Of a stretch of DNA of 44,462 nt, positions 2,932-11,285 are shown piece by piece (within the stretch, counting starts at the first letter, position 1; every line of letters begins with the position of its first letter). The notes under the pieces were generated by a model, which saw only the letters and a list, made by a program, of their open reading frames with translations, had not been told where the DNA came from and did not search any database. Source of the DNA: an archaeon (GTDB lineage: Archaea; AGJL01; Methanococci; Methanococcales; Methanocaldococcaceae); assembly GCA_024278985.1 (NCBI GenBank), contig JAJRSC010000024.1, positions 1-44,462 on the forward strand, written 5' to 3'. The position numbers were made by a program, and so were the translations under genes.

Positions 2932-3914
2932 ATTTCCACCTTTCTTTTAATATAGATATAGGATAAATATCCTAATACTGTTGGAAATAAATAAGAAATA
3001 AACCTATCTAATATATTAACAGCTCCTGCTATTGAAACAGGAACATTAAACATTGTAAATACTCCTATTGTAATGGCATCTGCTGAACCTAAACCTGATG
3101 GAGTGATGGAAAAAACTCCTGAAAGTAATGCTAATAAATAGACCACAGCAACTACAAATATATTAACACTATAGTATAATGCTAAGAAAAAGATATAATA
3201 CTTTGTTATATCTACAACTATCCATAATAAAGAAAATATAAATGATAATTTTGTATATATGTTATTTTTATTACCTTTAAAAAATAATATTCCTCTGTAA
3301 AATTCATCTATTATTTTAATTATTTTCTCCTCATTATATTCATATGGTAAATATTTACATATAAATCTATATGTTTTTATTGTAATTTTTTCTAAAAGTT
3401 TTCTATTTATAAATATATATAAAACTCCTAAAGATATTATAAGTAAGGATATCCAGGCAAATATTAAAACTCCTTTATAAGAGAAACCTAACATTATAAA
3501 GTATAATATAACAAAAAATGTGGCAATTATGTAGATTAATGTATCTAAAAATCTCTCTATAAAAACAGATGAATAACATATACCTTTTGGAATTTGCTCA
3601 AGTTTAGATAAATAATAAGCCCTAAAAACTTCTCCCCCTCCTCTCATAGAGGGAGTTATATTATTAAAGAACTGTCCTAACAATACATTTAAAAAAATAT
3701 TAATAAATTTTGCATTATATCCCAATGCTTTTATAACACACTTCCATCTAATACCCATAACAATAAAAACAATAATTTGCATAAAGATGGCCAAAAGTAT
3801 ATAAAAAATATTTGCCTCCTTTAACACCAACAAAATCTCATTTATTCCTATAATATACAAAATAATAAGTAATAACCCTCCTCCAATAATAAAACCAATA
3901 TATTTATTAATCAT
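2922..3914 (-). CDS. UPF0104 / lysylphosphatidylglycerol synthase TM-domain (flippase-like) membrane protein
   Basis: Polytopic; RW, FFNNITPS..GGE..RAY, ERFLD and ITPSGLG motifs. Confidence 0.85.
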   Translation of the reverse strand: MINKYIGFIIGGGLLLIILYIIGINEILLVLKEANIFYILLAIFMQIIVFIVMGIRWKCVIKALGYNAKFINIFLNVLLGQFFNNITPSMRGGGEVFRAYYLSKLEQIPKGICYSSVFIERFLDTLIYIIATFFVILYFIMLGFSYKGVLIFAWISLLIISLGVLYIFINRKLLEKITIKTYRFICKYLPYEYNEEKIIKIIDEFYRGILFFKGNKNNIYTKLSFIFSLLWIVVDITKYYIFFLALYYSVNIFVVAVVYLLALLSGVFSITPSGLGSADAITIGVFTMFNVPVSIAGAVNILDRFISYLFPTVLGYLSYIYIKRKVEIWR

Positions 3915-4425
3915 AATCTATAACCTTTTTAAGTTTATTATTTTCAAGAACATAAACAAAAAAATTGTATTTTTTGGCAATATTTATAACCTCCTTCCAT
4001 TCTTCTGCTAAACAAAAAATAACTTTAATTTTTCTATTTGTTGTTATTGGTAGAGAATATATATTTTCTAAAGATTTATATATCTTATTCATTTTTTTTA
4101 AAGTTCTTCTTTTATCTGTTTCTATTTCAATAATTATTATTTCTTTTTCTGATATTAAAACTATATCCGGCCTAAATCCTAATTTTACAAAATTTAAACT
4201 TTTCGATTCAACATAACACCCCAACTTATTACCTAAAATATTTAAAATCATTTCTCTCATTAATGAATGATAATACTCTTCTCTTCCAATTTTTTTTCCT
4301 GATGATATAAAGATTTTTAAGTTATTTATAGCACTTTCAATTGCCTTATCATTTAAATCTTTATTAATAATTGTTAAATCTTCAACCATCTTTTTAATTT
4401 TTTCTACAACTTCAGATTTTTGCAT
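3907..4425 (-). CDS. Hypothetical protein with restriction-endonuclease-like (PD-(D/E)xK superfamily, PD-ExE variant) motif
   Basis: 172 aa; EEYYH helix, VE, FRPDIVL, IIIIEIET. Overlaps the mutS 3' end by 22 nt and the downstream gene by 8 nt. The ORF is well supported; the nuclease call is an inference. Confidence 0.6.
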   Translation of the reverse strand: MQKSEVVEKIKKMVEDLTIINKDLNDKAIESAINNLKIFISSGKKIGREEYYHSLMREMILNILGNKLGCYVESKSLNFVKLGFRPDIVLISEKEIIIIEIETDKRRTLKKMNKIYKSLENIYSLPITTNRKIKVIFCLAEEWKEVINIAKKYNFFVYVLENNKLKKVIDYD

Positions 4426-6880
4426 TTTCTCACAATTTTGTCCAACTCATTCAACGCCTGAATTGGAGTAAGATGGTTAATATCTATCTTTTGAATTTCT
4501 TTTATAATCTCTTTAACCTCATTGTTAATATCCTTTTTATTTAATTCCTTATATATCTCATAAGCCCTCTCTACCACTTCCTTAGGTAAAACAAACTCAG
4601 CAATCTTTATTCCATAACTTTCATTACTTGCTCCTCTTTTTATCTTTCTATCAAACTCTAAACCCTTATCTGTCTCAATAACTCTAAAATGGTAGTTTTT
4701 AACACCTTCCAATTTTTCCTCCAACTCAGATATTTCATGGTAGTGTGTAGCAAAAAGTGTTTTAGAGCCAATCTTATGGAGATATTCAACAATTGCCCAG
4801 GCTAAACTTGCCCCATCTTTACTTCCAGTACTTTTCCCCACTTCATCCAAGAGAACTAAACTTTTACTTGTAGAATTCCTTAAAATTTGTCCAACTTCAG
4901 AAATTTCAACCATAAAACTACTGTATCCTCTTGTAATGTCATCAACTGTTCCAATTCTTGTAAATATTCTATCAACTACTCCAATAGATGCATAACTTGC
5001 AGGAACAAAACAGCCAATTTGTGCCAGTATTGTTATTAGGGCTGTCATTCTTAAATATGTAGATTTTCCAGCCATGTTTGGCCCAGTTATTAATATAATT
5101 TTACTTTCTCTTGTTAAATTAACATCATTAGGAATAAATTTAGTATTTAATTCAACAGTTGGATGCCTACCATCTTTTATTATTATACTATATCCATTAT
5201 TTACTTTTGGTTTTTTATAATTGTAAAGAACAGAAATTTCTGCAAATGTAGATAATACATCAATCTCAGCAATGTTGTGGGATATCTCTCTAATATCATC
5301 AACCTTTTCAGCAACTTTTTCCCTAACTTCTAAAAATAGCTCATATTCTAATCTTTTAATCTTTTCATCATAAATTAAAATCTTCTCTTCTATCTCTTTT
5401 AATTCATCTATAACATACCTCTCACTATTTGCAAGAGTTTGTTTTCTTTTATAGTCTTTAGGAACTAATTTAGTTTTTGTTTTGGAACTTCTATATAATA
5501 CCCAATAACTGTATTATATCCAATTTTTAATTTTTCTATTCCAGTTCTTTGTCTTTCTCTATTTTCTATTTCATAAAGTTTATTTAAATAGTTATTTTTA
5601 GCTTCTCTAAGATTATCCAACTCTTCAGAATAGTTTTCTTTTATAATTCCTCCATCAGTTATATTTATAGGAGGTTCATCTACAATAGCATTATCAATTA
5701 ATTCAACAATCTCATTTAACAATTTTAAGTTTTCTACTATACTACTTAACTTTTTAGAGACAAATTGGAAATTTTTAATTTCTTTAACATTTTTTAAAGA
5801 TTCTTTTAAAGCTACTAAATCCTTTGGAGATGCTTTATTATATTCAATCCTACTGACAATTCTATCCAAATCATAAATTTCTTTTAAGATTTCTCTTAAA
5901 TTCTGTCTTATAAAACTTTTTTGATATAGTTCTTCAACACTTTCTAATCTATTTTCTATTTCATCAACATTTAATAAAGGTCTTTGAAGCCACCTTTTTA
6001 ATAATCTACTTCCCATAGATGTCTGTGTTTTGTCCAAAATTTCAATTAAAGAGCCTCTTTTACTACCATCTATTAAATTTTTAAATATCTCAAGATTCTT
6101 TAATGTTGTAGAGTCAAGAATCATATAGTCCTTACTTTCATATTTTTGTAATCTAAGTTTTAAATTTTTTATTAAAAGAGATTCACTAACATACTTTAAA
6201 ACTGCTCCAACAGCAAGAAGTTCCTCATTATCAAGTTTAATATCTTTATGATTGGTTATATATTCACTAACATAATATTTTGCTTCATTTAAATTAAAGT
6301 AATCCTCAACAAGAGGATGCACTACTTTGATTATTTTTTTAATTTCTTCAATATTTTCAAAGTTTTTAGGAAGGATACACTCAACTGGAGAGAATTTTAA
6401 TATTTCTGCAACTACATCATCAAAATTTTTAACTGATGTAACTAAAAACTCACCTGTAGAAATATCTATTAGGGCAATTCCATATTTAAAACCTTTGTAT
6501 ATTGAGATTAAATAATTATTTTCTTTTGTTAATAGTTCTTCTTCTATTAAAGTTCCTGGAGTAATTACTCTAATAACTTCTCTTTTAACTAATCCTTTAG
6601 CTTTTGAAGGGTCTTCCACCTGCTCACAAATAGCTACTTTATAACCTTTTTCTATTAACCTTTTAATATATGGAAGAGCAGCATGATGAGGAACTCCTGC
6701 CATAGGATGTTTTTTATCTCTTGTAGTTAATACAATTCCTAACTCTTTAGCAGCAATTTTTGCATCTTCATTAAATAATTCATAAAAATCTCCTACTCTA
6801 AAAAAAAGAAGGCAGTCTTTATAATGCTCTTTAATTTTGTAGTATTGTCTCATCATTGGAGTTATAGACATAAAATCCAC
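4404..6880 (-). pseudogene. mutS: DNA mismatch repair protein MutS (MutS1), split by a one-base frameshift at about 5474-5483 as assembled
   Basis: N-terminal TPMMRQY..IK, FRVGDFYE, VAICEQ and ITPGT. The second frame is open from LVPKDYKRKQTLANSERY through GRHPTVE, TGPNMAGKST, DRIFTRIG, FMVE, LLDEVG, FATHYHE, SYGI and LTPIQAL. Adding one A restores about 820 aa. Likely start ATG at 6871 after GGTGGA. Confidence 0.93.
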
Positions 6881-7068: not shown

Positions 7069-7914
7069 AAATATTTTTTTAGTGAAATTATTAACTTAGA
7101 AAAAATTAATAATAATGATGTATTTAAAAAAATTAAATTTGATAAAGATGAGGAAATTAAAGAAAATAAAAATTTTAATCATAATATAATTATAAAAGGA
7201 GATAAAGTTTATGGAATATCAGATAAGGGAAATAGAGAAAATAATGAGGATAATATAATAATTAAAAAGATAGAAGATATCTATATATTAGGAGTAGCGG
7301 ATGGATTGGGCGGGCATAATGCTGGAGAAGTAGCATCGAAAATAGCAATTGAAACATTAGAAGAGGAATTTACAAAGAGATATAATAAAAAATTATCAAT
7401 AGAAGAGATAAAAGAACTTTTAAGGGAAATATATAATAAGGCACATGAGAAAATAAAAGAAAACGCGATAGAAGATAAAGAAGGGATGGGAACAACATTA
7501 ACAACAGCAATAATAAAAGGAGATAAATGTATTGTAGGAAATTGTGGAGATAGTAGGGCATATTTAATAAGAAATGGAAAAATAATATTTAAAACAAAAG
7601 ACCATACCTTAGTTCAGACATTAGTAGATGAAGGGCATATAACAGAGGAAGAAGCGTTTTATCATCCTATGAAAAATATTCTTAACTATGCTTTAGGAAT
7701 AGATGATATTAAAGTTGATATTTATGAATTAAATCTAAAAAAAGGAGATATAATATTATTAAGTTCTGATGGTCTTCATGATTATCTTAAAGAATCTGAA
7801 ATATTAAAAATTGTTAATGAATATTCTTCTCCTGAACTTATAGCCAAAGAACTTTTAAATTATTCTTTAAATATTTCCAAGGATAATATTAGTATTATAG
7901 TATATAAACACTAA
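7069..7914 (+). CDS. PP2C/PPM-family Ser/Thr protein phosphatase (start codon unresolved)
   Basis: Frame open from 7069 and contains GNRENNED, VADGLGGHNAGEVAS, GMGTT, NCGDSRAY, SSDGL and DNIS. No in-frame ATG/GTG/TTG before 7306, which lies inside motif 2. Confidence 0.85.
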   Translation, partial: KYFFSEIINLEKINNNDVFKKIKFDKDEEIKENKNFNHNIIIKGDKVYGISDKGNRENNEDNIIIKKIEDIYILGVADGLGGHNAGEVASKIAIETLEEEFTKRYNKKLSIEEIKELLREIYNKAHEKIKENAIEDKEGMGTTLTTAIIKGDKCIVGNCGDSRAYLIRNGKIIFKTKDHTLVQTLVDEGHITEEEAFYHPMKNILNYALGIDDIKVDIYELNLKKGDIILLSSDGLHDYLKESEILKIVNEYSSPELIAKELLNYSLNISKDNISIIVYKH

Positions 7915-11227: not shown

Positions 11228-11285
11228 TGCGGATGATGAACGGAGTAGCTACTGAACTATGATGAGTGATGGGCGAACTGACGCA
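11228..11285 (+). ncRNA. Box C/D methylation guide sRNA
   Basis: Terminal stem TGCG/CGCA; box C ATGATGA 11233-11239, D' CTGA 11252-11255, C' ATGATGA 11259-11265, D CTGA 11278-11281; two 12-nt guides; T-run downstream. Confidence 0.92.

Follow-up and report, generated by a model that had tools for sequence, protein, structure and literature searches.

A MutS1 gene coupled to the gene of a small restriction-fold protein as a candidate MutL-independent mismatch-processing module in hyperthermophilic archaea

The mutS gene and the small gene that follows it

A 44,462-nucleotide (nt) contig of an archaeon of the Methanocaldococcaceae (JAJRSC010000024.1 of assembly GCA_024278985.1; this whole stretch is called the window below) carries a gene for the mismatch sensor MutS1, followed directly by an open-reading frame (ORF) of 172 amino acids (aa) whose predicted product has the fold of PD-(D/E)xK nucleases. 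On balance, and at slightly better than even odds, we favour reading the two genes as a translationally coupled, MutL-independent mismatch (heteroduplex) processing module in which a stand-alone restriction-fold nuclease stands in place of MutL (and MutH). The initial annotation of the window had put forward such a candidate, a MutS sensor with a small restriction-like nuclease and no MutL, and the proposal is supported by the predicted fold of the small protein, by the absence of MutL and NucS, and by the linkage between the two genes. The features concerned, all on the reverse strand of the window, are the following.

3907-4425, reverse strand: ORF of the 172-aa MutS-associated PD-(D/E)xK-fold protein, with an ATG start and the stop codon included in the coordinates
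about 4291-4425, reverse strand: helical hairpin, residues 1-45 of the 172-aa protein, from structure models
3910-4290, reverse strand: predicted nuclease core, residues 46-172 of the 172-aa protein, from structure models
4404-4433, reverse strand: coupling region, made up of the 22-nt overlap between the mutS 3′ end and the ORF start (4404-4425) and of GTGAG (4429-4433)
4404-5479, reverse strand: mutS C-terminal part, the end of domains IV/III and domain V with Walker A (Pfam MutS_V, 253.9 bits; NCBIfam MutS equivalog, 443 bits)
5479-5480, reverse strand: frameshift site, one base missing compared with four relatives (DNA alignment, CCAAAA-CAAAAA against CCAAAATCAAAAA-type sequence)
5465-6880, reverse strand: mutS N-terminal part, domains I-IV with the GDFYE mismatch-binding motif, 471 aa (ORF, Pfam and NCBIfam)

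The start of the 172-aa ORF overlaps the MutS C-terminal frame, which ends at 4404, by 22 nt, and the GTGAG motif lies 3 nt 5′ of its ATG. Its translation contains GREEYYHSLMRE, YVES, GFRPDIVLI and IIIEIETD. Inspection of the reading frames and of the sequence therefore bore out the initial description of this gene, which had given its position directly 3′ of mutS, the overlap, the GTGAG before the ATG, and a His-containing helix followed by VE, FRPDI and IEIET motifs. The arrangement recurs in relatives: across the 15 loci measured, the overlap is 19-25 nt, the start codon lies inside the 3′ end of mutS in every case, and a GTGA(G/A)-type motif precedes the small gene in 14, the exception (locus L029) having GTTAGG. 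Judged by its homologues, its invariant columns and its low ratio of nonsynonymous to synonymous substitution (dN/dS), the ORF is conserved beyond chance.

Predicted fold and conserved residues of the small protein

Two AlphaFold models of the small protein, built on alignments of 7 and 25 sequences, agree with each other (predicted local distance difference test, pLDDT, 83.2 and 86.2; predicted template modelling score, pTM, 0.71). Both have a two-helix hairpin (residues ~2-42) followed by an alpha-beta-beta-beta-alpha-beta core, with helices at 48-64 and 105-123 and strands at 70-72, 88-91, 95-102 and 132-139. In a structure search of 48,161 representative chains, only three reached Z ≥ 8, namely SdaI (Z 8.8, root-mean-square deviation (rmsd) 3.2, 117 residues), NucS of P. 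abyssi (2vld; Z 8.3, rmsd 3.4, 104 residues) and AF2093 (Z 8.0). Re-scoring of the better model on Foldseek-ranked chains gave 9.1 for SdaI, 9.0 for NucS, 8.8 for EndoMS-DNA, 8.7 for Can2, 8.4 for Nt.BspD6I, 8.3 for PaqCI, 8.1 for BsmI, 6.1 for BamHI and 6.0 for FokI; the top match by Foldseek itself was N.BspD6I (E 4.6e-4), and Hjc structures were also among its matches. All of the listed core-domain matches belong to the restriction-fold class; MutH, which may nonetheless resemble the core, is not among them. The nuclease fold that had been suspected for 3907-4425 is thus what the models predict, a restriction-endonuclease fold of the PD-(D/E)xK type, with middling scores, around conserved acidic residues.

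Sequence searches gave fainter leads in the same direction. Below the Pfam thresholds, AHJR-like matched 13 of 15 family members (best E 2.5e-4) and PDDEXK_10 matched nine of the 15 (best E 1.7e-4), and a protein atlas returned only weak leads, with restriction-fold families as its nearest named clusters (0.87). Neither NCBIfam nor PADLOC gave a significant match for the small protein, and a sequence search of the PDB with the family profile gave nothing meaningful.

Homologues at 31-50% identity share 17 invariant columns. Across 25 homologues that are only 28-50% identical to the protein of the window, the residues that never vary include E49 and H53 (helix 1), Y71 and E73 (at strand 1), R85-P86-D87 (ahead of strand 2), E100 and E102 (within strand 3) and K111 (in the next helix). 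This is a PD...(D/E)xK layout in which a glutamate, E102, replaces the lysine, so that strand 3 reads E100-I-E102. The replacement also speaks for another reading, that the 172-aa protein is a non-catalytic restriction-fold adaptor (a MutS regulator, a clamp or a DNA-binding subunit) and that a different enzyme makes the incision; inactive restriction-fold domains do exist as a Pfam family (NA-iREase1, seen among the matches of other proteins). We regard this as distinctly improbable, since the invariance of E73, D87, E100, E102 and K111, together with E49 and H53, over sequences this diverged would be unusual for a decayed site. An ExE variant of the catalytic motif is active in BamHI, which is itself among the structural matches. 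For a catalytic partner of MutS1, as we prefer to read the protein, the invariant K111 in the following helix may substitute for the missing lysine. A PCNA-binding tail was also considered and was rejected, the C-terminus being modelled as a strand of the fold.

Linkage and co-divergence with mutS

The family is small. When 1.84 billion representative proteins were scanned in full by HMMER with the profile of the family, 11 came out at E ≤ 0.001, of which eight are full-length (158-176 aa), one is a 60-aa fragment and two are unrelated repeat proteins; no fused form of the small protein was found in this full scan, and a word-indexed protein search matched only the protein of the window. A scan of GTDB representative contigs gave 18 loci, four of them already among those of the genus, from Methanocaldococcus sp. 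16A and 28A, M. indicus SL43, metagenome-assembled genomes (MAGs) of Archaeoglobaceae and unclassified archaeal MAGs. One uncultured-archaeon MAG (G125) contains two mutS-nuclease pairs on different contigs (L025 and L031), either a true duplication or a bin in which two populations are mixed.

Linkage to mutS was followed in these loci, in a same-genus set of 16 further Methanocaldococcus genomes (17 with that of the window) and in a sample of 81 Archaeoglobaceae genomes. In the genus, the small gene stands directly after mutS, with the same embedded start, in all six loci, and the same 7 of 17 genomes (six relatives and that of the window) carry both genes. Among the GTDB representatives, tblastn places mutS directly upstream in 17 of 18 loci; in the eighteenth, the contig begins 76 nt 5′ of the small gene and its first 98 nt encode the last 32 residues of MutS. 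In the Archaeoglobaceae, the small gene is present in 20 genomes, MutS_I in 23 and both in 19, and in each of these 19 the two lie on one contig and one strand, ~2.4-2.6 kb apart. The survey of neighbourhoods that had been suggested at the outset therefore confirmed a conserved linkage, with no homologue away from mutS in any assessable locus.

The two genes also appear to evolve together. For the small gene, dN/dS was 0.05-0.18 in the seven of nine computed pairs whose dS was unsaturated; for mutS it was 0.03-0.05, again over unsaturated pairs. Both genes are thus under purifying selection. Pairwise distances of MutS and of the small protein correlate (r = 0.93; Mantel 0/5000), indicating that the two proteins co-diverge.

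These results bear on the idea that the small protein is a nuclease with a job of its own, for example resolvase-like or flap-type, that merely shares an operon with mutS. The weak Pfam likeness to AHJR-like (archaeal Holliday-junction-resolvase-like) and the Hjc structures among the Foldseek matches would agree with it. We nevertheless hold it to be very unlikely, given that the small gene is never without mutS in any assessable locus, that its start codon is embedded in the 3′ end of mutS in 15 of 15 loci, that it co-diverges with MutS, and that its family, eight full-length clusters and the one fragment, is confined to such cassettes. A nuclease dedicated to MutS1 remains the reading that we prefer.

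Absence of MutL and distribution of NucS

The window is contig 26 of a 30-contig, 1.107-Mb genome that is 85.78% complete. Searches with MutL_C, DNA_mis_repair and HATPase_c_3 gave zero matches each in the window and in this genome, extending to the whole assembly the lack of mutL that had been noted for the 44 kb; NucS_C and MutH likewise gave zero matches in the genome (the MutH control search was positive in E. coli), so that the genome search for mutL and nucS suggested at the outset found neither. The carriers in both groups gave the same picture. DNA_mis_repair was absent from all 16 genus relatives, the six carriers included, MutL_C from all five genus carriers at 98-99% completeness, and MutL domains from all 20 Archaeoglobaceae carriers of the small gene. 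By these searches, carriers appear to lack the MutL of canonical MutS-MutL mismatch repair. A MutL domain was found in 1 of the 81 Archaeoglobaceae genomes (G094), in which a longer MutS (896-aa frame) lies next to MutL and the small gene is absent. In two loci from canonical MutS-MutL genomes (L057 in G057 and L058 in G094), the start of mutL likewise overlaps the 3′ end of mutS, and the overlap between the small nuclease gene and mutS mirrors this canonical gene arrangement.

True NucS (173-204 bits) occurs in 6 of the 17 genus genomes, none of which carries the pair, and no high-scoring NucS is present in the seven genus carriers; the NucS_C matches of 31-33 bits in two carriers (G008 and G010) come from proteins of a generic Mrr_cat/PDDEXK_9 type, 238 and 328 aa long. 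This complementarity between the pair and NucS is suggestive but rests on few evolutionary events. Strong NucS is rare in the Archaeoglobaceae (5 of 81). The nucS of one of the six Methanocaldococcus genomes with NucS (G005, C1:435165-435509) has an in-frame TGA that leaves an open frame of only 124 aa, and it may be broken.

Identity of MutS and the frameshift in the window

Pfam MutS_I, II, III, IV and V are all matched across the two halves of mutS, and the NCBIfam MutS equivalog scores 515 bits with the N-terminal half and 443 bits with the C-terminal half. Both GDFYE and the Walker A sequence GPNMxGKST are conserved without exception among 15 MutS proteins of the cassettes. With domains I-V, the Phe-X-Glu motif, Walker A and these equivalog scores, the protein is, as far as its sequence tells, a bona fide, ordinary MutS1, and its gene is the sole MutS_V-bearing gene of the genome.

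The initial annotation had treated mutS as one open gene within a module spanning 3907-6880, which the reading frames do not uphold: the gene is split into two frames at 5479/5480. The C-terminal frame is open across 4404-5513 and differs from that of the N-terminal part, whose stop codon, after the frameshift, is at 5465-5467. The start assigned to the N-terminal part by the ORF finder is GTG 6880; comparison with relatives (M-x-LTPMM) makes ATG 6871 the likely start. A DNA alignment with four relatives shows that the base missing between 5480 and 5479 is a T that belongs to an invariant Ser codon. Relatives have intact mutS genes with open frames of 821-832 aa, and both halves in the window are stop-free apart from this 1-nt lesion, so that it is either a very recent true mutation or an artefact of assembly. 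Programmed frameshifting was considered as a further explanation and rejected, as no slippery heptamer is present at the site and relatives simply have one base more.

A proposed mechanism and the evidence that weighs against it

The proposed mechanism is as follows. A MutS1 dimer would recognise a mismatch through its Phe-X-Glu motif and become an ATP-bound clamp, which would then recruit or activate the 172-aa protein, probably via the conserved N-terminal helical hairpin. The hairpin is the obvious candidate for docking on MutS because the small protein has no evident DNA-recognition domain. The PD...ExE site (E73, D87, E100 and E102, with K111 and E49/H53 nearby) would cut DNA near the mismatch, and general exonucleases, polymerase or recombination would finish the repair. 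From the observations above we infer the physical binding, the nuclease activity, the choice between a nick and a double cut, the choice of strand and the role in repair.

A broader form of this idea, to which we give just under an even chance, is that the pair represents a third MutS-based repair architecture, in which there is no MutL and the MutS1 clamp itself licenses a stand-alone restriction-fold nuclease dedicated to it, in a cassette that has moved between hyperthermophilic archaeal classes and is functionally interchangeable with NucS/EndoMS within Methanocaldococcus.

Several observations weigh against a MutL-independent module of this kind. The MutS-to-nuclease hand-off, that is, the binding and the mismatch-dependent cutting, is a step that we infer. 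The canonical (D/E)xK lysine is Glu102, so that the site is a variant one whose activity is assumed; the fold scores are middling (models that lack a clear match typically reach a best Z of 7-8), and the small protein matched no Pfam family above its gathering cut-off. In this window, mutS reads as broken by the 1-nt deletion, and unless the deletion is an assembly error the module may be inactive in this genome. The co-occurrence has exceptions in the Archaeoglobaceae, where one genome (G129) has the small gene without a MutS_I match and three (G131, G132 and G134) have MutS_I without the small gene; the MutS frames of these three are short (680, 361 and 593 aa, respectively), and are read as putative cuts at contig ends. 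The genomes that enter these counts are related and so are non-independent samples. Four genus genomes (G002, G003, G013 and G015) have neither the pair nor NucS, which indicates that neither is indispensable, and the exclusivity with NucS fails in the Archaeoglobaceae, in which one genome (G064) has both the pair and a 122.9-bit NucS_C match. Finally, deletion of MutS/MutL in Halobacterium leaves the mutation rate unchanged, according to the portion of PMC7690668 consulted, and archaeal MutS1 need not, on that result, act in the repair of replication errors.

Relation to known systems

The pair is like E. coli MutS-MutL-MutH in combining a MutS1 sensor with a small stand-alone endonuclease of the PD-(D/E)xK fold that has no mismatch recognition of its own. 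It differs in having no MutL matchmaker. The small protein also falls outside the MutH family: Pfam PF02976 (MutH/Sau3AI) matches neither the ORF (E ≤ 1) nor the genome, and the protein has an N-terminal helical hairpin and ExE instead of ExK.

NucS/EndoMS is similar in its catalytic-domain fold, which is among the top matches (2vld, Z 9.0, rmsd 3.2, 104 residues; 5gke, Z 8.8), and in its occurrence in hyperthermophilic archaea, the two systems lying in separate genomes in Methanocaldococcus. However, hhalign against four Methanocaldococcus NucS proteins found nothing (E 0.88), and the small protein has neither the N-terminal mismatch-binding domain of NucS nor a NucS_C Pfam match, placing it outside that family. 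Unlike in NucS, mismatch recognition would presumably be supplied in trans, by MutS. NucS makes double cuts.

Joining of a MutS with a dedicated nuclease is also seen in MutS7-HNH (octocoral mitochondria and giant viruses), in MutS2-Smr and in the GIY-YIG form of plant MSH1. In the present case, by contrast, the candidate nuclease is encoded by a gene of its own that overlaps mutS, its predicted fold is PD-(D/E)xK and not HNH, Smr or GIY-YIG, and the MutS is an ordinary MutS1. For MutS7, self-contained repair without MutL has been proposed (PMC3166940, in the part of the article consulted), and among published ideas MutS7-HNH comes closest to a self-contained MutS-nuclease. The type IIS enzymes and nickases (N.BspD6I, BsmI, PaqCI and FokI) and the CARF nucleases Can2 and Card1, which provide the best or near-best structural matches, resemble the small protein in that their cleavage module depends on a separate recognition module; their sensor, however, is fused in cis and reads a DNA sequence or a cyclic nucleotide, whereas the candidate sensor here is a separate MutS protein.

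Hyperthermophilic archaea are said to be without MutS/MutL, and some archaea to have neither MutS/MutL nor EndoMS, leaving their replication fidelity unexplained, in the consulted sections of two reviews (PMC7343888 and PMC7690668). No paper describing the pairing of MutS with a small nuclease was found, and the sections consulted of PMC7343888, PMC8358315 and PMC7690668 are silent on it, as is the portion consulted of the text of PMC5290159; the supplements of such distribution studies might list MutS-only archaea. If the proposal is true, this MutL-free partnership of a conserved MutS1 and a private nuclease would be a new answer to the question of archaeal replication fidelity, would show how MutS can be linked to incision with no matchmaker protein in between, and would mean that some hyperthermophiles do have MutS-based repair, in an undescribed form. 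The idea is directly testable, as intact pairs are present in named strains (Methanocaldococcus indicus SL43 and Methanocaldococcus sp. 16A and 28A) and neither protein is too large for thermostable biochemistry.

Evolution of the cassette and its genomic setting

In a tree of MutS proteins, those of the cassettes form one clade with a long stem relative to two MutL-partnered archaeal MutS proteins, the outgroup branches being long and the root tentative. The four Methanocaldococcus MutS rows are monophyletic and nested within the Archaeoglobaceae and uncultured rows, and the MutS of the window is sister to that of M. indicus. The nesting would fit one transfer of the pair between classes, in a conjectural direction.

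The neighbours of the pair in the window encode an LPG-synthase-like membrane protein, MbhD, a CobQ-like protein, a THUMP methyltransferase and an aminotransferase, and the setting is chromosomal and of a housekeeping kind; the GC content of the pair equals that of its flanks. The CobQ-MbhD-LPG synteny is common to the window and one other genome only (G008), in which the pair lies elsewhere, and the genes downstream of the pair vary among carriers. PADLOC-DB gave zero families for the small protein and for the N-terminal part of MutS, setting them outside the known defence systems that it covers, and generic P-loop matches only, at E 9e-4 or weaker, for the C-terminal part of MutS.

Much of this evidence bears on a further explanation, that the pair is an anti-recombination or foreign-DNA barrier, a mobile accessory cassette in which MutS senses heteroduplex with diverged incoming DNA and the nuclease destroys the intermediate. 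The patchy spread (in the genus 7 of 17 genomes, in the Archaeoglobaceae 20 of 81), the nesting of the Methanocaldococcus MutS, which fits transfer between classes, the different chromosomal neighbourhoods of the pair even in the two closest genomes, and a CRISPR array 3.2 kb away are all in keeping with it, and anti-recombination by MutS2-type proteins is an established precedent (PMC4739419). We nonetheless consider the barrier unlikely, because this MutS is a MutS1 equivalog, not a MutS2, because no PADLOC model matches the ORF or the N-terminal part of MutS, because no relatives of the small protein were found on viral contigs, plasmids or phages, because the neighbours are housekeeping genes and the GC content is that of the flanks, and because the complementarity with NucS at the level of the genus fits repair. 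Mismatch processing by MutS1 and its nuclease therefore remains our preferred account. The initial annotation had left three roles open, namely repair, anti-recombination and defence. Of these, a chromosomal role in repair or on heteroduplex DNA is the one that the data favour, with repair and anti-recombination not separated, and phage defence came out as the least likely of the three (PADLOC results, setting, and no copies found on viral contigs, plasmids or phages).

Other features of the window

The CRISPR array, at 2-727 on the forward strand, runs from the start of the contig, ~3.2 kb from the nuclease gene, and is built on a 30-nt repeat present in 10 copies, each scoring 40 bits with Rfam CRISPR-DR13. 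Divergent from mutS, at 7306-7914 on the forward strand, is a PP2C-type phosphatase ORF of 202 aa with a TTG start, which may be truncated or mis-started; its Pfam match begins only at profile position 43. At 11229-11283 on the forward strand, a small RNA of the C/D-box type (Rfam sR2, 51 bits; gathering score 42) occupies the space that separates a tetrapyrrole-methylase-like gene from the gene of a DEAD-box helicase.

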